NCBI GenBank assembly: GCA_049599475.1
Contig: JBMYOQ010000005.1
Coordinates: forward strand, 32,001-96,000
DNA: 64,000 bases
Direction: 5' to 3'
Origin: Opitutales bacterium
GTDB lineage: Bacteria; Verrucomicrobiota; Verrucomicrobiia; Opitutales; JABSRG01
In this document: in pieces, positions 7,960-24,076 of the stretch
Layout of the letters: every line of letters starts with the position of its first letter
Numbering within the stretch: position 1 is the stretch's first letter
The notes under the pieces: model-generated
Told to the model about the DNA's origin: nothing
What the model saw: the letters and a program-made list of their open reading frames with translations, nothing else
Databases searched by the model: none
Translations under genes and position numbers: made by a program

Positions 7960-10900
7960 TCACGTCCAGGCGCAGATAGAATCTAAATACTGGGCAGATC
8001 CATCTCTCAACCAACCGTCGAGTTGGGCTTGAGCTTTGAGCTGTTGTCCTCGGTTTCTGGGTACGGTGATGAAGCCGCACTCTGCGCCGGGGTAGGCAGT
8101 CATATCGCTCCAAAGTTTTTCGAATTGGCTGACTGGGTAAATGTCCTCCTGAGCGTGTCCCCAGCGTTTTTTGACCTCCTTTATGGTGATGTAAGTGGGC
8201 ATGCGGTTGGCGACTTTTCGGACACAGTCGGCGACCTTTGCCTCGTCGTCTAAATCGGAAACCGAAAGTTCGAAGAGTGCGAGTAGGCGCTCTATCGAAA
8301 TCCAGGTGGTCATCGAATTGTAGTAGGATAATTTATATTCCTCTTCCTCGCTGGGGAGGGAGAGTCCTTCGACGAGCCGAGGTTTGCCATTGATGCGGGC
8401 GAGCCCTCCGCCCCGGTCTTCATAGCGACGGGTGATTACCTCGAACGAAAAGTCCTTTTTGGATTCGATATGGACGCCCAAAAACGCCGGGTCGATACTG
8501 GCCCCCAATGTATCAATATTGTGGAGCATGAGATACTTGAGCTGCGGGCGCTCTTTCAGCATCGCGGCCAAGGTGCCATTGCGCAGAAGGTTTGGAATCT
8601 CATACCAGTGGCCTACGGGGTGCAGACACTGCATGGGGAGGTTGTCGCGGTAGTCGCTGCCTTCGCCGAGGCCGCGTGCCCAACCCGCGAGCGCGTCGCG
8701 AACGCTTTCTTTCATCTTCTGCGCGCGCTCATCGAGAATCTGCTCGGTGACCTCTTCCCAGGAGAAGCGCAAATCGCGCACCATGGGCACCATACGCAGG
8801 CCGATGTATTTACCTTTGGATACAAATAGACTGCCCGGATAGCCATATTGGTCCTCCTGTTCGAGGACGCTTTTGATGGGCTGGTGGGTGAGGTAGCTGC
8901 TGGTGATCACATGTAGCGGATATGCACCGAAGGTATCGCCGACTTTTTTACTCTTCGCCAAGTGAGTCTCGATGAAGGAGCGATGTTTGCCGCCCAATTT
9001 GCAGAATGGGTGTAAGCCTTTCACTACGCCTGCACCTTCGGTCCACCGGCTACCGACCCCTGCGGCTAGGGTGACCACGCCGACTTCGCCCTTGCGAATT
9101 GCGGATTCTCCGATGGTTTGTATCGATTTATCAATCACGCCAGTGCCATCGAAGGTGTCTTCAGGCTCAACATCTTCGATTGTGGTCGTGGTTGGGAAAC
9201 GGTTTTGCGCCAGGCCAATGCGGCCGTTTTGCAATTGTTGACGAATGGTGTCGTGCTGAATGGTGTCGAAGCCGTTCTCCACCAAAAGATCGTCGAGATT
9301 GCTTGTAGTTTTCTTGGCACTACAAGTATCCGGAAGGAGCTGTCTGAAAAAGTCCGGGATTGCTTGTTGGAATTGGGTGTCGCCTTCGCAGTGCCGGGTA
9401 AAGGTTTGTAGCTCGGCAACGCGCCCCGCAGTCATATTCTTGATGTCTGATCTTACCAATTCGGGTATCACTTGCTTGTAGTAGACTGGAGGTAATAAGG
9501 CTTTTTCTCCGCTGAGTAGGGTGCCGAAAGTGCCATTCGGGTTGATGGTAAATTCATAAACGACCGGATCCATCGCGAAGGGAAGGGATTGTTCCAGCTG
9601 GCCCTTGGTCTCGAGCATGATTTTGCGGATTTCGGGAAGCGCCTCACTTTTGATTGAAGGATCTACGAAGAATCCCATACCGCCGCCTGACATGCCGCCT
9701 AGCATGACGAAGCCCCAGTATTTATCTCCGAAACGTGCACTGATCTTCTGAATCAATTGCTCCGTGTAGTAGGTCGTGGCCCATGGGATAATACTCTGAA
9801 CGGGCTCAAAGAAATTCTGCGTGGTAAGCGCGGCTAAGCGTTTGATGTCGCCCGTCTTCAGGCAGTCCACGATGTTGTCGAAGAGCTCAATCGCTAGGGC
9901 GCGGCTCTCCCACTCCTTACCCGATCGCAGCAAATACTTTTCGGAAACCATCTCGAGAATGGGCCCTACGTTCTGGGCCATCCCTCCATGAACGAGGACC
10001 AGACTGTCTTGGAGGCCCTGAACGGTGTCAGCGCTGATATCTTCGTTGAGGACGCGGTGTCGTGGTAGGAGGCAGCCGCGACTGATGCCGTATTCTGGGT
10101 CGTTCTCGGTGGCGAGCTCTCCGCAGATAGTCTTGATGCCAGGCCAAACGCCGCCGGAGTCCTGCCAGCCACCGCCGGAACCTCCGAGCCATTCACCGAG
10201 GATCGCGCGGGCCGCTACGATGCGTCGTTCAGCTTCGTTGAGGGACCCCTCCAATTTGCTGGTTTGGCCCGTAGCGCGCATGCAGGCGGATATGAGGCAG
10301 GCCAACAGGTTCGTCGAGACCGCAAGGCGCGAGCCCTTGGGAATATCGCGGACGTGGCTGACGAGTTCGAAGCCTTTGCCGGGCCCGAGGAGTCGTTCCA
10401 AAAGACTTTCTAGAGATTGCCCGGAGCCTTCAATGCCAGGAGGGACGATGCCCGCTGCAATCACGGCGGCTTTGAGCAGTCCGAGGTAGTCTTTGCCGAA
10501 GCTGAAGAGATCCTCTAGGTTTGTGATCTCCGCTGAGGCCTTCAGGTCGAGGCTGATGAGTTGAATGACGGGTTTGTCGATGACTCGGAAAAAGCCTTGG
10601 ACGGGCGGCAGAGTCTCTTTGTCTCGACCCCACACGGCGAGGTCCACGGAGATGTTTAAAACACGCGCCGCTTCTGGTAAATCCATGCCCAGGAAGAAAA
10701 TATCGCTCCAACCGCTGTGGGTTAGATCCATGCGCACAGGTGTGGTCTCGTGGATGACTGGGTAGGGCGTGCTAGCGTTTGCCCGTTCCAAGAGCTCATT
10801 GCGTATTCTCAGCGGGTGGCTGCTCGGGTGCCCCATGCGGAACATCCACTGGTTGCCCTTTACTGATCGGACGCTGCGGCGTACTTGGTTTGCCAAATAC

Positions 10901-11277
10901 TGGAGGGCCAGATGATAGTAGGCGTAGGCGAGAGCGCTGGAAAGGGTGTCGTTGGAGCCTTCGGTATTTTGTTGTTCGAGTAGGACGTCGATTCCCTCCT
11001 CAAAACGCCGCTTTAGGATCCGCTCATTTGCCTCAAAGGAGAGCAATCCAGCTTGTTTAGAAGTGTAGTGCTTGGGCAGGTGAAAGCGGTGAATTGCGAA
11101 GAGAAAGAAGAGGGCGCGGACTTTCTCGTAGAGGTTCTCGCTCTTTCTGCGAAAGGCATCAAGCGCTTCGCATTCGCTTTGCAATTGCTCTGGAGAAAAT
11201 CCAGCAATGGCGTTTTCCAGGGGGATGTCTCGCTCTGATTTTTCGGGCGAGATGATCAAATGTATCAGACTGCTCAT
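7960..11277 (-). CDS. Fusion of GHMP sugar-kinase-like domain and UDP-sugar pyrophosphorylase (UDPGP family)
   Basis: Fucokinase/HddA-like GHMP motifs PVRMDLTHSGWSD, IPKGSRLAVS, GGGWQD, GGMSGGG. C-terminal UDPGP motifs LAAGVGSRW, HPVGHW, HNIDTLGA, QFEK. Confidence 0.8.
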   Translation of the reverse strand: MSSLIHLIISPEKSERDIPLENAIAGFSPEQLQSECEALDAFRRKSENLYEKVRALFFLFAIHRFHLPKHYTSKQAGLLSFEANERILKRRFEEGIDVLLEQQNTEGSNDTLSSALAYAYYHLALQYLANQVRRSVRSVKGNQWMFRMGHPSSHPLRIRNELLERANASTPYPVIHETTPVRMDLTHSGWSDIFFLGMDLPEAARVLNISVDLAVWGRDKETLPPVQGFFRVIDKPVIQLISLDLKASAEITNLEDLFSFGKDYLGLLKAAVIAAGIVPPGIEGSGQSLESLLERLLGPGKGFELVSHVRDIPKGSRLAVSTNLLACLISACMRATGQTSKLEGSLNEAERRIVAARAILGEWLGGSGGGWQDSGGVWPGIKTICGELATENDPEYGISRGCLLPRHRVLNEDISADTVQGLQDSLVLVHGGMAQNVGPILEMVSEKYLLRSGKEWESRALAIELFDNIVDCLKTGDIKRLAALTTQNFFEPVQSIIPWATTYYTEQLIQKISARFGDKYWGFVMLGGMSGGGMGFFVDPSIKSEALPEIRKIMLETKGQLEQSLPFAMDPVVYEFTINPNGTFGTLLSGEKALLPPVYYKQVIPELVRSDIKNMTAGRVAELQTFTRHCEGDTQFQQAIPDFFRQLLPDTCSAKKTTSNLDDLLVENGFDTIQHDTIRQQLQNGRIGLAQNRFPTTTTIEDVEPEDTFDGTGVIDKSIQTIGESAIRKGEVGVVTLAAGVGSRWTEGAGVVKGLHPFCKLGGKHRSFIETHLAKSKKVGDTFGAYPLHVITSSYLTHQPIKSVLEQEDQYGYPGSLFVSKGKYIGLRMVPMVRDLRFSWEEVTEQILDERAQKMKESVRDALAGWARGLGEGSDYRDNLPMQCLHPVGHWYEIPNLLRNGTLAAMLKERPQLKYLMLHNIDTLGASIDPAFLGVHIESKKDFSFEVITRRYEDRGGGLARINGKPRLVEGLSLPSEEEEYKLSYYNSMTTWISIERLLALFELSVSDLDDEAKVADCVRKVANRMPTYITIKEVKKRWGHAQEDIYPVSQFEKLWSDMTAYPGAECGFITVPRNRGQQLKAQAQLDGWLRDGSAQYLDSICAWT

Positions 11278-17941: not shown

Positions 17942-18667
17942 CTACTGGTTGAGGGTTAAAGTGCTCGGAGGATTGCCTTGTCGGGTGGATTTCCTCCCAA
18001 AATCTGAAAGCACTGCTCGGACCGACGCCACGAAGGCGTCTGGGTCGTCGGGAGTGATCACGATGGTTTTTCCATCGAATCGAGCTATCACCGCTTTCTT
18101 AGGGTCGGTGGCGTAGACACGGTAGGTACCGAGGAGTCCATTGCGAAAATAGCCGATGTAGCCGAAAAGGCCCCCTATACCAAATAGGCGAATGGAGCCC
18201 ATCATTGCGTCGGGCTCGACTTGTAGATCTTCCAGTTTCTCGAGAGGGAAGCGCTTACTCCACCCTGCGCGATGAACGAGGAGTTGCCCTTCGCGGATCG
18301 AATATCCGGCAACCCCAAGAAAGTAGGCAAGAATCAATATGATGGTGAAAATCCAAAGAATCTCCGGAAGGAAAATGGATAGTGTTATGAAAAGAAGAAC
18401 CACAGTTGTGGTCACTATCTTTAGCGGCTTGTCCCAGGGAGCGCTGAAATTTAAACGCAGGACGGCATCTTGAAAAACTATTGGATCTACTTCGAAGGTA
18501 TTCGCCAAGAGGAGGATGCAATCTGCAGAGGGAAGCTCCCCTTTTTCATATCTTTGTATCGAGCGAGTCGATAGGCCGCACACTTCCGCGAGTTTTTCCT
18601 GTGTCCAAGAGCGGCGAGCGCGCTCAAGCTTTATTCGGGAAGCGATCTTTGAATGTGTTGAATTCAT
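17942..18667 (-). CDS. XRE-family HTH regulator fused to 2 TM segments and a bacterial PH domain
   Basis: N-terminal RARRSWTQEKLAEVCGLSTRSIQRYEKG, two TM segments, and bPH motif SIRLFGIGGLFGYIGYF..ITPDDP. Confidence 0.85.
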   Translation of the reverse strand: MNSTHSKIASRIKLERARRSWTQEKLAEVCGLSTRSIQRYEKGELPSADCILLLANTFEVDPIVFQDAVLRLNFSAPWDKPLKIVTTTVVLLFITLSIFLPEILWIFTIILILAYFLGVAGYSIREGQLLVHRAGWSKRFPLEKLEDLQVEPDAMMGSIRLFGIGGLFGYIGYFRNGLLGTYRVYATDPKKAVIARFDGKTIVITPDDPDAFVASVRAVLSDFGRKSTRQGNPPSTLTLNQ

Positions 18668-18701
18668 GGCCTAAAACTTTACTAGAATGCGCCATTTTGA
18701 C

Positions 18702-18730
18702 CACGACAGCAACACGACAATGACCTGACA
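18702..18730. promoter_or_regulatory. Three phased direct repeats (11-bp period), candidate XRE autoregulatory site
   Basis: CACGACA (18702), CACGACA (18713), CCTGACA (18724), 35-63 bp upstream of the XRE start. Confidence 0.45.
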
Positions 18731-18820
18731 GGCTGGCGAAAGGTGAATTTCGTGTCCCCTAAAATTGATCACGGAGCTAAGCCGCCTTACAGAGCTTGAG
18801 CTTGGTCAATTCATCTCCCA

Positions 18821-20905
18821 TTAGTAACTAAAATCTGAATACTGCAGGAAGAAGTCTGTATTCTCCGGATCTGCGAAGGGGGGCTCGATCGGTTGTTGAG
18901 TGAGCCGAAAAAAGCGGCTGGGATCGAGGCCCACAGTATCCTCGGTCAAGACGCCCTCGCCCGTACCGTCGAATGCGCTCGCGAAATCCTGCCATGCATT
19001 GAGGAGGTTGGTTGTCGATTCCCATTGGTAATTGAGGCGCGTGTTGGTCGCATTGGCCGTGAGCTCAATATCTTCTTGCGGATCGTCTCCGGGTGCGATG
19101 CTGACGGGTGTGATTGGTTTCATATGGGCCTCTAACCACTTTAAAACCTCGGCGCGCGAAAGTCGTTTGGCCTTTTGATCGGCAGTTTCGTTATTGGTGT
19201 CCCAATCAATCCCAAGTGAAGATGTGACCAGATCGAAGGAGTGATCCACGCCTGCATAGATGAAGTGGTGCTGCAAGGGATCCTCGACGCCTTCCGCTGC
19301 GGCTTGAAGGGAGGAAGATTCGACTTGTTTGATTGGAAAAAGGTTTCCCGTAAGCGGCAATGCAGCATCTGGATCGTCGACACCCAGCAGTGAATCCTCT
19401 GTGCCGTGGAAGAGGAGGACCTTCATGCGACGGTCGAACATATAGCGTCCGGCGGTGACAGAACTGGCTTGTCCATGATAGCGCCAATGGGAGCCCCCGC
19501 CGTAGTAGAAGAAGCCCAGCTTGGGAAAGGGTAGGTCGTCTGGAATGCGGACGGGGCTGTCGACGACAAGTAGGGTGTCGAATTCGACATCATCCTCTGG
19601 CTCTGGCGTGTCTTGGTCGTTCAAATCGACATAGGAAACCTCGTATTGGCCAAGGTCGACAGAGACGTCGAGCACGGCGTTCATGGCCGTCTGAGCACCA
19701 TGGGAGAACCCCATCAATGCAATGTTGTCGGTATCTACATCGTCTCGGCTCTGTAGATAGCTCAAAGCGGCAACGACATCCTTGGGCCTCTCGTAATTCG
19801 GCGAGCACAAGGCGTCGTCGTCAGTGGGGTCGTAGTGCGGCCGCCGGCCACTGAAGTTCTCTGGAATGCCGCGTGGATTGTAGCTGTCTGGGAAACAGGC
19901 AATGTACCCTAGGTCTGCGAGGAGTTCACCCCATTGCTCAAATTGAGAGATGAGGCCATTCGCGATTTCATCATTTGACCATAAACCTCCGGATCCGTGC
20001 ATGATCAACACGGTGGGATAGGGCCCCGGACCGAAAGCACTCGAGTCAGGAACGTACAGGCGTGCGACTAGGGTGAGTTGATCCGCATCGTCAGGGTAAC
20101 CAGGCAAAGCGGATAGCTGTGCAGTCGGGGTCGGGATTGAGTCAGGCTCGAGATCCTCGGGGAGATCGAAGAAGACGGTTTCTTCGGTGAAGGCGGTCAC
20201 CAGCGACTCTGCATCTAAACGCACATCATCGAAATCGACCTCGATACCAGGATCAGGAGTGTCTGCGATATTCAGATTAACCAGGCGAATGGTCAGAGCC
20301 CCGCCTTCCTGGGGGTGCGCATCCCCGACATCGTAGACAATCTCGCGCGTCTCCCAGAGGCCTTCGCTGATCTCCGCTCCGGTGTCGGAGGCTAGCACGA
20401 CATCGCCCGCCATAAGGTCTATGCGGTAGCCAGGAAAGCCGTTCAGGTTATAAAAATTGTTACCCCCGTCTGCGGAGGATACGGACCCTTGGCCGGAAGC
20501 AATGTTGCCTACATCGACCTGTAGTGTGTAACGGGTTTTGAGCTCCAGAGTATCGCCAAGGGTTTGTTGGATTCCGACTTCACCTTGTCCAAATGCGCCG
20601 TCCAAGTAAATAATAGCAGCCAAGGAACCCTCAGGCGCGCCGCCAGGGAAAAAGTCTGAGCCGGTAGGATTGATCAGGCCGATCGAAAGATTGTTGCCAT
20701 TTAGCAGGGCGTTTGGGTCGTAAGGGTCCCAGTCCGAAGGGGTCCCTGGATCGACACGAAAGGTATTATCCGGGATCGGAGACAGGTCCGGCATGGTGTC
20801 ATTCTCGAAACCTGAATTCAGGATTGCGAGAGGCGCAGCGTGGGAAACGTTAAGGCAAACCGAGGCCGCAACGCACAGCGCGGCACCGAGTGGGTAGGTC
20901 TTCAT
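18821..20905 (-). CDS. Secreted protein: Stig/HpiC1-cyclase-like beta-sandwich domain + dienelactone-hydrolase-like serine hydrolase + short C-terminal domain
   Basis: Signal peptide. N-domain motifs NSGFE, WDPYDPN, APEG, IQQTL..RYTLQVDVGN, GFPGYRIDLMAGDVVLA, IRLVN, EVDFDDVRL. Hydrolase motifs HGSGG, GFSHG, HGTED, HSFD. Confidence 0.8.
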   Translation of the reverse strand: MKTYPLGAALCVAASVCLNVSHAAPLAILNSGFENDTMPDLSPIPDNTFRVDPGTPSDWDPYDPNALLNGNNLSIGLINPTGSDFFPGGAPEGSLAAIIYLDGAFGQGEVGIQQTLGDTLELKTRYTLQVDVGNIASGQGSVSSADGGNNFYNLNGFPGYRIDLMAGDVVLASDTGAEISEGLWETREIVYDVGDAHPQEGGALTIRLVNLNIADTPDPGIEVDFDDVRLDAESLVTAFTEETVFFDLPEDLEPDSIPTPTAQLSALPGYPDDADQLTLVARLYVPDSSAFGPGPYPTVLIMHGSGGLWSNDEIANGLISQFEQWGELLADLGYIACFPDSYNPRGIPENFSGRRPHYDPTDDDALCSPNYERPKDVVAALSYLQSRDDVDTDNIALMGFSHGAQTAMNAVLDVSVDLGQYEVSYVDLNDQDTPEPEDDVEFDTLLVVDSPVRIPDDLPFPKLGFFYYGGGSHWRYHGQASSVTAGRYMFDRRMKVLLFHGTEDSLLGVDDPDAALPLTGNLFPIKQVESSSLQAAAEGVEDPLQHHFIYAGVDHSFDLVTSSLGIDWDTNNETADQKAKRLSRAEVLKWLEAHMKPITPVSIAPGDDPQEDIELTANATNTRLNYQWESTTNLLNAWQDFASAFDGTGEGVLTEDTVGLDPSRFFRLTQQPIEPPFADPENTDFFLQYSDFSY

Positions 20906-21006
20906 GGCTAGTCAGGCTTGGGTGGAGTGAGCGGAGCCTACGGATCCGATTAGGCGGGTCAAACCTGAACAGGGTGTCTCTGAGGAAAGCGGGAATCGGC
21001 TTTTTC

Positions 21007-22194
21007 CTACTTCCTTGACGAAAGTCTGATCACCGAAACCTCTGCGGGGGTGCCGAACCGAAAGGGAACTCCCCAAAATCCAGTTCCAGGATTTATATAG
21101 AGGGTGCTTGTTCCTTTTTTGTAGAGGCCCATGGCGTGCTCCAGGAAGGGAGACGCGAGACTCCAATTGAGAAAGGGGATGGCGAATTGGCCATAGTGGG
21201 TGTGACCGCTTAGAGTGAGATCGACACCGCGCTGGTTGAGCTCGCTCCATAGAGCGGGGTTGTGAGCGAGAGCGATCACGGGTTCGTTCGGAGAAATGTC
21301 CTTAAAGGTCAGGGAAATGTCGGGTGCCGCTGGCGCCTGCAATGGGTTGTTTTTGTTGGCTGCGGGATCGCCCGTTCCGGCTATCCAAATACGTTGACCG
21401 TCTTTTTCGATAGATTTCGATTCGTTGAGTAGCACCTGGATGCCACTGCTTTCTAGGCCTGCTTTGACGGGGATCCAATTCGCGTAGATGTCATGATTTC
21501 CTATGACAGCATATACGCCGCAGGGTGCCTCGAGGTCTTTGAATGCCGCGTTGAAGTGCTCGATGTCGTGAGCGAAGTCGTCAACCTGGTCTCCGGTAAT
21601 GACGATTAGGTCAGGTTGCTGGTTGAGAACCGTCTGCTGTATTTTTGCCAGAAATGGTTTAGAGGTATGAGGCCCTACATGAAGGTCTGAGATTTGGACG
21701 ATTTTTAGCCCTTCAAAAGCTTCTGGTAATCGAGAAATAGATACATCTATGACCTTAAGCGTTAGTTTGCGCGAATGGTACCATCCCATGATGGACAGAA
21801 GGCTGAGCCCAGGTATCGTGATCGCCGTGCTCCATCGAGCAAACTGGGCACTGTCTCCGAATGGAAACCCTAGAGCTGCGCCCGTGAGCATGCCTATTGC
21901 GATGAGGGGCAGGGCCAGCATCGCATACCAAAATGGCCGCATAATGAATAGCCGTGTCGAAGCATTGGGATAGGCTTCTCTTGTGAATCCGTTGACCAGT
22001 GCGCGCAGGGGAATCGCAACGAGTAAGAGGGCTCCTGAAATGGACAGCCATCCTCCAGGCAAGAAGGGGTGGAAAAATACTCCGATTACCGACAACGGAA
22101 GACCTATCCACGCTAGGACGAATAGGGATACGGGAAGAAGTGGGAAATGCGATTGCGGGGCAGCAGTCGTTCTGATTTCGGCATTCATGAGCAT
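21007..22194 (-). CDS. Membrane-anchored metallophosphoesterase (YkuE/YaeI-like)
   Basis: SDLH, TGD, GNHD, AHNP and SGHTH motifs after 4 TM segments. Confidence 0.92.
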   Translation of the reverse strand: MLMNAEIRTTAAPQSHFPLLPVSLFVLAWIGLPLSVIGVFFHPFLPGGWLSISGALLLVAIPLRALVNGFTREAYPNASTRLFIMRPFWYAMLALPLIAIGMLTGAALGFPFGDSAQFARWSTAITIPGLSLLSIMGWYHSRKLTLKVIDVSISRLPEAFEGLKIVQISDLHVGPHTSKPFLAKIQQTVLNQQPDLIVITGDQVDDFAHDIEHFNAAFKDLEAPCGVYAVIGNHDIYANWIPVKAGLESSGIQVLLNESKSIEKDGQRIWIAGTGDPAANKNNPLQAPAAPDISLTFKDISPNEPVIALAHNPALWSELNQRGVDLTLSGHTHYGQFAIPFLNWSLASPFLEHAMGLYKKGTSTLYINPGTGFWGVPFRFGTPAEVSVIRLSSRK

Positions 22195-22339
22195 TATGAC
22201 AAACTTCGGCGATCGATGTTCGGGACTGTAATCGATTTTGAAATTATACTATCAGGTCCGCCCGCTTTAGCGCCAATTTCGTGACTCTCGTGTATTTGGT
22301 GGACTCCCGAATCGAAGCTTAAATAGCATCCGCGGGAAG

Positions 22340-24076
22340 ATGTATACACTTAGGCCCTATCAGCAGGAAGCAGTAGATCGGACGCTCCGTTATTTTCGGA
22401 AGAAGCGGAGTCCTGCGGTGATCGTCCTGCCTACTGGAGCAGGGAAGAGCCTTGTCATTGCCGAGTTAGCGAAGATTGCTAAGGGGCGCGTCTTGGTGCT
22501 CACGCACGTGAAGGAGCTGGTCGAGCAGAACCACCTGAAATACGAGAGCTACGGCCTGAAGGCGGGAATCTACTCAGCTGGATTGAACCAGAAGGACAGT
22601 GCCCAGAAGGTCATCTTCGGGAGTATCCAATCTGTCGCAAATGCTGAAGATAGCTTTTTCCGAGATTTCAACTTGGTCGTGATCGACGAGTGTCACCGTG
22701 TGGGTCTGCAGCCGGAATCCCAATATGCGCAAGTGATTGGGCGACTTCAGCGCAACAATCCGCGCATCTGCATCCTAGGCCTCACGGCTACACCCTATCG
22801 CTTAGGACTGGGATGGATTTTTAATGTCGCGCTTGATGGCGAGATAAAGACGGAAGAAGATCGTTTTTTTAAGCACTGCATCTACGAGTTGCCAATCGAC
22901 TACATGATCCGGAATCGTTACCTTACGCGGCCGGTAAAAGTGGACAATCCGGTGACCTCCTACGATTTCTCCGAGCTTACCGAAGGGGGCGAATCCTACA
23001 CCATGGCGCAACTTGAGGAGGTGCTTGGTCAGCAGCGACGGCTCACACCCCTTATTATTAAAAACATTATCGACATTACGGAGAGTGAACATCGGCAGGG
23101 TGTTATGATTTTTAGCTCTACCGTGAAGCATGCCGAGGAGATTATGGAGTACCTCCCCGCGGGGCAGGCCCGGCTCGTGGTCGGGACGACAGAGCTCAGC
23201 GAGCGAGATGCGATCATTGAGGCCTTTAAGCAGAAAGCATTTCGTTATCTCGTGAATGTCTCGGTGTTGACGACGGGGTTCGATGCCTCCCATGTGGATG
23301 TAATTGCGATACTACGACCCACCGAATCTGTGAGCTTATACCAACAGATTATTGGTCGCGGCTTACGTTTGGGAGATGATAAAAAGGACTGCTTAGTCCT
23401 AGATTATACTGGAATGGGGCACAGTATCTTCAGTCCAGAAATCGGAGAGAAAAAGCCAGAGTCGGAATCGGTTCCGGTGCAAGTCGCCTGTCCGCAGTGT
23501 GGGCATATTAATGACTTCTGGGGTACCCTCGATCATGATGGCAATGTCGTAGAGCATCATGGGCGCAAATGTAGGGGAGGGAAAACGGATCCGCACACGC
23601 TTGAATTTACGCCGTGCGGCTTTCGTTTTCGCTATAAAATTTGTAGCGAGTGTGGCTCAGAAAACGATATCTCTGCGCGGGCCTGCAATAAGTGCGGTGT
23701 TGTATTGGTAGATCCTGACGAAAAGCTCAAGCAGGCTAGGCTTTCTAAAAATGCCCACGTGCTCACGCCAGATTCCATAGAAATGCTAGAGCGCACTGAC
23801 AAGCGAGGAACGCCCTACCTACAGGTGAAGTATTACGATTACGACGCACAGTTTGTATCCGAAATGCACTACCTGAACAATCCGACGAGTCTCAAAAAAT
23901 TCAGAGTCAACTTCCTTCGCTCCCACCTGCGTCGACCCGAAACAAAGCTCAACATCCGAAGGGTCGAGGATGTGATCAATATCCAGTCCCAGCTCCGCAT
24001 GCCCGCCTTCGTAATCGCCCGCAAACAAGGCAACTTCTGGAAGGTTACGGAGAAGATATTCGGCGAGGAGCTGTGA
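22340..24076 (+). CDS. radD: DNA repair helicase RadD (YejH)
   Basis: [34 protein letters not shown], plus C-terminal Zn fingers CPQCG and CSECG..CNKCG. Confidence 0.9.

Follow-up and report, generated by a model that had tools for sequence, protein, structure and literature searches.

The window analysed here is a stretch of 64,000 nucleotides from the genome of an Opitutales bacterium, and the gene of interest within it (18821-20905, reverse strand) encodes a protein of 694 amino acids in which a homologue of the Stig cyclases (HpiC1 and its relatives from hapalindole loci) is joined to a serine hydrolase. We read this protein, with a probability of roughly 0.55, as a predicted secreted Ser-Asp-His hydrolase that has recently gained an HpiC1-like domain, and we read that domain as a non-catalytic, calcium-stabilised binding module and not as a hapalindole cyclase. 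The gene is a single uninterrupted open reading frame, with no break, and its parts are listed below.

18821..20905, reverse strand: whole gene, 694 amino acids; predicted signal peptide, HpiC1-like domain, serine alpha/beta-hydrolase and C-terminal beta domain
20837..20905, reverse strand: residues 1-23, predicted signal peptide with a hydrophobic core (hydropathy over 11 residues reaching 2.5) and the ending S-H-A
20204..20836, reverse strand: HpiC1-like (PF22825) beta-sandwich, residues 24-234
20648..20650, reverse strand: Phe86, at the position of Stig Tyr89 by alignment
20228..20242, reverse strand: E222-V-D224-F-D226; by alignment Asp224 corresponds to Asp214 and Asp226 to the calcium ligand Asp216
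19112..20197, reverse strand: serine alpha/beta-hydrolase of dienelactone hydrolase-like (DLH-like) fold, residues ~237-598, by PF01738, model and fold match
19703..19705, reverse strand: Ser401, nucleophile position in GFSHG (399-403), invariant in 121/121
19394..19396, reverse strand: Asp504, predicted triad acid, invariant in 121/121
19241..19243, reverse strand: His555, predicted triad base, invariant in 121/121
18824..19111, reverse strand: C-terminal five-strand beta domain and tail, residues ~599-694, from the strands in the model

The signal peptide was assigned by reading the sequence.

The HpiC1-like domain and its pocket

The first-pass annotation of this DNA had recognised a series of HpiC1/FamC1 motifs in the N-terminal domain (N-domain). 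All of them are present, in order, within residues 24-234, with the hydrolase motif GFSHG at 399-403, and the domain proved to be a true Stig cyclase homologue. A phmmer search matched 13 distinct PDB chains of Stig cyclases (E 2.6e-25 to 2e-22, over residues ~22-234), the Pfam family PF22825 (cut-off 27 bits) gave a score of 156.8 bits that spans positions 2-174 of its 174, and the identity to ten Stig cyclases is 36-41%. The AlphaFold model of the domain, built on 131 aligned sequences including 8 Stig cyclases, has a predicted local distance difference test (pLDDT) score of 96 and superposes on the Stig cyclase 6a8x with Z 28.0 and a root-mean-square deviation of 1.3 Å over 190 residues. 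Foldseek placed the Stig cyclases first at E 5e-19, with the first non-Stig match at 4.5e-7.

The next folds after the Stig cyclases were carbohydrate-binding modules (CBMs) of families 4, 16 and 61, and the Atlas neighbours of the N-domain were DUF642 and CBM_4_9 clusters, with a feature score of 0.93 to the DUF642 clusters. The first-pass annotation had named a better alignment with ordinary CBM4/9 modules as the result that would speak against its claim; the reverse was found, because the best CBM (CBM4-2, 4bj0) reached only Z 15.5, and identification as an ordinary CBM4/9 was rejected on this difference of 12 Z units. None of the 131 aligned family members matched a CBM family of Pfam. The idea that Asp214 corresponds to the sugar-binding Asn of CBM6/CBM35 found no support, as the lists of fold matches were not headed by any entry with CBM6 or CBM35 in its title. 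The jelly-roll fold with a structural calcium site that is common to beta-sandwich CBMs is nevertheless present (Z 11.7-15.5 to CBM4/16/22/61, with the Ca2 ligands kept). The CBM-like fold of Stig cyclases has already been published (10.1101/173674, PMC9063808), and the Ca2 site is described as common to CBMs (PMC9063808), while the CBM surface-cleft residues are given as not conserved in HpiC1 (10.1101/173674).

Our definitions of the functional sites (two calcium sites, Asp214, Tyr89 and pocket positions 101/138/210) were taken from the same two sources. There, Ca1 is bound by N137, D/E175 and the backbone of 138, 147 and 149, and Ca2 by E39, E95, D216 and the backbone of G37 and N98. Asp214 is essential and Tyr89 is its hydrogen-bond partner, the Y89F substitution losing >90% of activity (PMC9063808). 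The class definition also includes a homodimer through strand beta6 and a calcium-dependent cyclisation of geranylated indolenine. We aligned ten Stig cyclases taken from hapalindole loci with 283 other domains. By this alignment both calcium sites are predicted to be kept in the window domain, Ca1 as N134, E181, L154 and G156, and Ca2 as G32, E34, E92 and D226, with N98 replaced by Leu95. The equivalent of Asp214 is present as Asp224, as the first-pass annotation had claimed, and Asp226 aligns with Asp216. The rest of the conserved catalytic site was not borne out: Phe86 replaces the strictly conserved Tyr89, the three pocket aromatics are lost (Tyr/Phe101 to Ile98, Phe138 to Ile135, Phe210 to Gly220), and Gly212 has become Glu222, so that the aromatic pocket with a small or neutral residue at 212 that marks HpiC1-type enzymes is missing. 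Four of the ten Stig sequences likewise keep just one aromatic among 89/101/138/210.

Position 212 separates the two groups: it is Gly or Asn in 10/10 Stig cyclases and Glu in none of them, against Glu in 256 of the 283 non-Stig domains. The combination of Tyr89 with Asp214 occurs in 10/10 Stig cyclases, 13/34 repeat domains, 5/242 single-domain proteins and 1/7 fused proteins. Of the 249 single-domain rows, 17 were dropped for gaps or different residues; in the remaining 232, positions 86 and 224 hold Phe with Asp in 182, Tyr with Asn in 34, Phe with Asn in 10 and Tyr with Asp in 6. Mutual information with position 224 is highest for position 86, and position 224 has changed between Asp and Asn at least 16 times on the tree. 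Close kin at 59-64% identity already have Tyr with Asn (P0124-P0126 and P0128) or Ala at the Asp position (P0129), and in the sister branch of the window domain's branch position 224 is A, G, V or Q. Because Phe/Asp alternates with Tyr/Asn and Tyr with Asp is rare, the Asp at 224 outside the Stig cyclases is probably not a general acid, as far as the alignment can tell; instead, next to a constant Glu, the position would donate a hydrogen bond in neutral form. The positions that set Stig and non-Stig domains apart thus make a short list (86/89, 222/212, 224/214, 98, 135 and 220).

We infer secretion, calcium binding and a terminal pocket with Glu222 and Asp224. Two calcium ions would hold the loops round the pocket much as in Stig cyclases, and a polar group of the ligand would be held by Glu222 together with the neutral donor at 224, either Asn or, next to Phe86, a protonated Asp. 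The ligand may be a small amphipathic molecule or a polymer side group lying among the aliphatic walls Ile98, Ile135 and Leu154, and the N-domain would in this way tether the hydrolase to a surface or to its substrate.

That the N-domain is a working Stig-type cyclase, acting on a prenylated indole or a compound like it by Cope rearrangement or cation cyclisation, is hardly credible to us. The close structural match, the retained Asp and calcium sites and the level of identity to the ten Stig cyclases all speak for it; the five pocket substitutions, a branch distant from the Stig clade and the missing pathway speak against it. Isonitrile synthase (PF05141) and ABBA prenyltransferase (PF11468) were found in neither of the two genomes of the genus (the window genome, G000, 96.6% complete, and G001, 86%), both families being found in 2/2 genomes with hapalindole clusters used as positive controls. 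The absence of these genes noted in the first pass therefore holds for the window genome as a whole, and a tblastn search of that genome with both hapalindole enzymes also gave no match. Neither enzyme was found at any of 84 PF22825 loci, which form 66 independent groups (<80% identity), 56 of them counted as long enough to show neighbours, and no neighbouring gene recurred in more than 5/66 groups. A hydrolase-cyclase in the hapalindole sense, one of the two options first offered, is unlikely given the pocket changes and the lack of pathway genes; a catalytic role of another type is possible.

The hydrolase and the history of the fusion

In agreement with the first reading, the N-domain is joined to a serine hydrolase, and a signal peptide is predicted. 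It matches PF01738 with 33.9 bits against a cut-off of 21, over profile positions 11-114 of 217 only. Its model (pLDDT 93) has Z of about 21 to several alpha/beta-hydrolases, and the G-x-S-x-G elbow, Asp and His follow in the canonical order of a serine hydrolase on an alpha/beta fold. Classical dienelactone hydrolase has a Cys nucleophile. That identity fails here, the nucleophile being Ser401 and the PF01738 match partial. Since the fold matches (Z 19.7-21.1) are tied among unrelated esterases and thioesterases and the NCBIfam matches lie far below cut-off, we assigned no substrate class; an esterase or lactonase is likely, judging from the predicted triad. The hydrolase belongs to an uncharacterised family of ~470 amino acids whose named members are Verrucomicrobiota, and in our sample of 301 genomes of the phylum it occurs in the window genome only. 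The unfused members P0008-P0121 are well-conserved predicted secreted serine hydrolases with an invariant Cys-Ser-Pro-x-Tyr-Glu-Arg-Pro-Lys-Asp motif.

Among the best 120 of 150 full-length matches, 6 have both domains and 114 the hydrolase only; the closest full-length matches are named Opitutaceae, Haloferula, Cerasicoccus and Rubellicoccus, names that suggest a Verrucomicrobiota host. Besides the window protein, six fused proteins are full-length and share the whole architecture, five from this search (P0003-P0007) and the orthologue L011 from the same-genus genome G001, at 87% identity. The fusion is therefore not an assembly artefact, and a frameshift or chimera was likewise rejected on the single open frame and the seven independent fused sequences. 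In a midpoint-rooted tree the seven fused hydrolases group as a single clade (support 1.0) inside the unfused ones, so acquisition of the N-domain happened once and the hydrolase family manages without it. On the sequences the fusion appears as one recent event, small in itself; of 41 related genomes, 2 have it. When the N-domains of G000 and G001 are compared, 3.9% non-synonymous differences stand against 73% synonymous ones, the latter near saturation, which points to purifying selection.

These data also bear on an uncoupled fusion, in which two secreted cargo domains would merely share a signal peptide and a C-terminal sorting domain and each act by itself, the N-domain being an adhesin or ion-binding surface module. 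The single origin and rarity of the fusion fit this idea, and so does the fact that each domain occurs separately with a like C-terminal tail (P0124-P0126 versus P0008-P0121) and that the two families never stand together in the 300 other genomes. We consider it distinctly improbable, given that seven proteins at 74-87% identity retain the fusion, two of which carry the names of different genera, and that a second esterase fusion arose independently. This second protein, P0379, has the opposite order (signal peptide, BD-FAE esterase, HpiC1-like domain of the Tyr and Asn type, C-terminal beta domain), and its domain lies on a different branch of the domain tree from that of the window.

The C-terminal beta domain of the window protein has no Pfam or NCBIfam match. 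By eye it is similar to the tails of stand-alone homologues, and 28 of the 120 near homologues of the N-domain carry such tails; its likely role is in sorting or anchoring.

The wider family and the origin of Stig cyclases

The first-pass annotation had remarked on the domain lying outside cyanobacteria. It turned out to be far from rare there: the N-domain alone matches 683 proteins of 116-370 amino acids, 30 longer ones and, in a set clustered at 50% identity, at least 592 clusters, and it is the fusion that is a recent add-on. Named matches come from Verrucomicrobiota, Planctomycetes, Gammaproteobacteria and Fimbriimonadaceae. PF22825 is sporadic, with 12/301 genomes of the window's own phylum and 8/301 of the phylum of the Westiellopsis genome. 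The domain-architecture survey proposed in the first pass found mostly a domain plus an anchor, or tandem repeats in RTX proteins. Pattern rules applied to the nearest 120 short homologues gave 42 membrane tails, 28 dockerin-like tails and 28 C-terminal beta domains, and inspection by eye added 11 PEP-CTERM and 2 dockerin-like tails, so that about 111/120 are a domain plus an anchor in this set of 116-370 amino acids, the search being biased to short proteins. Of the 131 aligned members, Pfam gave 31 a PEP-CTERM and 12 a dockerin match. Many of 48 chosen longer matches have two or three tandem copies or are combined with RTX, Fn3, LamG, Ig or RHS domains, and few have enzyme partners.

PF22825 already models this wider family, and both Pfam domains are already called on the fusion protein. 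In the accessible literature outside subscription journals and preprint supplements we found no description of a non-cyanobacterial family, of pocket covariation or of esterase fusions. The JGI name 'hapalindole H/12-epi-hapalindole U synthase' on the stand-alone or anchored homologues P0144, P0149, P0217, P0224 and P0387 is likely an over-annotation, and such labels on metagenome members of the family are probably wrong. Three EukProt proteins (P0130, P0131 and P0262) are HpiC1-like, P0130 and P0262 being labelled as the foraminiferan Bolivina argentea and forming the sister group (99/95) of the window domain's branch. Matches similar to these three have PT repeats or a SAM domain and a changed Asp position. 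A transfer into foraminifera is possible, as is contamination.

The breadth of the family raises the alternative that its members are widely distributed surface enzymes whose own acid/base chemistry would use Glu222 and Asp/Asn 224 (for example isomerases, lyases or detoxifying enzymes) and that the window protein works in two steps, the N-domain acting on a product released by the hydrolase. The pocket and calcium residues are highly conserved over the Verrucomicrobiota, Planctomycetes, Gammaproteobacteria and Armatimonadota-named matches, single-domain surface proteins predominate, the sole characterised members of the family are enzymes, and the two independent esterase fusions, the short linker of ~5 residues and the purifying selection on the N-domain also speak for it. 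The alternative is, in our view, rather unlikely: position 224 has repeatedly switched between Asp and Asn and in the sister branch holds A, G, V or Q, tandem copies occur whose degenerate pockets are typical of binding repeats, and no pathway neighbours were found at the 84 loci.

Several observations weigh against a binding module. Most family members are without a catalytic partner, in contrast to typical CBMs, and the ~45-55% identity across phyla with a near-constant Glu and Asp/Asn equally fits an enzyme. Asp224 is kept in 7/7 fused proteins. The covariation of 86 and 224 is borderline once corrected for kinship (9 independent pairs, ~7 of which agree, median p 0.07), and the placing of Glu222 in the pocket is deduced from strand alternation. 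Finally, 0 of the 11 other genomes with PF22825 in the 301-genome sample had the window hydrolase family, so the domain and the hydrolase family are not habitual partners.

The second option of the first pass, an ancestral binding module from which the Stig cyclases derive, stood in part. Of the two options the binding module is the better supported; the nearest relatives of the Stig cyclases, however, are cyanobacterial-type RTX and tandem-repeat domains and not the window domain. We built a FastTree tree of 182 domains and an IQ-TREE tree of 66 chosen domains rooted on 7 divergent ones; in the latter the bootstrap was not fully settled and one Nostoc domain entered as a 137-residue part. In both trees the Stig clade (100/99) falls among cyanobacterial-type RTX/tandem-repeat domains, grouping with six of them at 84/98, and the window domain lies on a separate, supported branch far from it. 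By 'cyanobacterial-type' we mean named loci (Nostoc, Scytonema), loci from that phylum, and likeness, several of the proteins having no taxon. PF05141 and PF11468 were each found in 0/5 cyanobacterial-type genomes, both families being positive in the two control genomes elsewhere. Two proteins from Nostoc and Scytonema (L009:8396-10267 and L004:8636-10264), outside hapalindole clusters, consist of three tandem HpiC1-like domains only, and their last domain is among the nearest relatives of the Stig cyclases. An approximately unbiased (AU) test left a basal Stig clade unrejected (p 0.108), so the direction from repeat domains to Stig cyclases is favoured, not shown.

The Stig cyclases probably arose from the wide family of predicted surface proteins. 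They would be a derived cyanobacterial branch in which Tyr89 joined Asp214, the Glu was lost and pocket aromatics were gained, a binding pocket being turned into an acid catalyst. We put forward a broader proposal tentatively, with the odds somewhat against it: that HpiC1-like domains are an unrecognised cross-phylum, calcium-stabilised surface family whose Glu and Asp/Asn pocket binds or converts one common extracellular small molecule, that the Stig cyclases came from its cyanobacterial RTX-repeat branch through these few pocket changes (Tyr89 with Asp214, Glu212 lost, aromatics added), and that, judging by the esterase fusions, the ancestral ligand was an ester or a product of its hydrolysis. 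Stig cyclases belong to the very small number of enzymes for which catalysis of a Cope rearrangement is known. If the proposal were true, the birth of this enzymatic reaction could be retraced with living intermediates. The structure papers had only a likeness to CBMs to point to. Hundreds of non-pathway homologues are now known, including the cyanobacterial-type repeat domains adjoining the Stig clade, and together with the list of pocket positions they make the transition from binding module to enzyme testable. The fused esterase offers a handle on the ligand of the HpiC1-like domain.

Genome context and comparison with known systems

The flanking genes encode a metallophosphoesterase, a protein with a helix-turn-helix (HTH) and a bacterial pleckstrin homology (PH) domain, YdjM, SelO, a subtilase and a helicase, and no biosynthetic cluster was seen among the 12 open reading frames scanned. 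The gene at 17942-18667 (reverse strand), between the fusion gene and selO, encodes an HTH_3 regulator with a membrane segment and the bacterial PH domain; in G001 (L011) selO directly follows the fusion gene. A promoter and terminator scan of 18500-22500 gave signal at chance level. Farther off, 7960-11277 (reverse strand) encodes a protein of 1105 amino acids with a weak UDP-glucose pyrophosphorylase match at its C-terminus and an N-terminal part that resembles a sugar kinase by eye, and it adjoins a nucleotidyltransferase gene. The window genome has one strong PF22825 match and one below cut-off, the latter (L002:1429-3501, G000:C23; 21.9 bits) lying N-terminally in a long protein that is predicted to be secreted.

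Compared with the Stig cyclases HpiC1, FamC1, FilC1 and FisC (PF22825; 5wpr, 5yvk, 5yvp, 6a8x), the window domain is alike in fold, calcium sites, the Asp214 position and the N-terminal leader. It differs in its fusion to a hydrolase and a C-terminal domain, in lacking the loop around Trp73, in insertions at 40-45, 142-151 and 213-218, in having Phe for Tyr89, an aliphatic instead of an aromatic pocket and the extra Glu222, and in a genome in which no hapalindole pathway genes were found. By these comparisons the protein belongs to PF22825 and to the serine alpha/beta-hydrolases, and does not count as a Stig cyclase. With the beta-sandwich CBMs (CBM4-2, 4bj0 and 2y64; CBM16, 2zew; CBM61, 2xom; a porphyran-binding CBM, 8xmz) and DUF642 the domain shares the jelly-roll fold (Z 13.5-15.5) and the architectures of an appended module or a domain plus anchor, although it is only 11-18% identical to them and has an extra Ca1 site and long loops that would form a terminal pocket. 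The hydrolase has the fold and the nucleophile-acid-His order of DLH-like alpha/beta-hydrolases (PF01738; 3f67, 4zi5) and of the feruloyl esterase 7z2u, but it is only 14-20% identical to them and has large insertions, a predicted signal peptide and a C-terminal domain, besides the Ser nucleophile that sets it apart from classical DLH.

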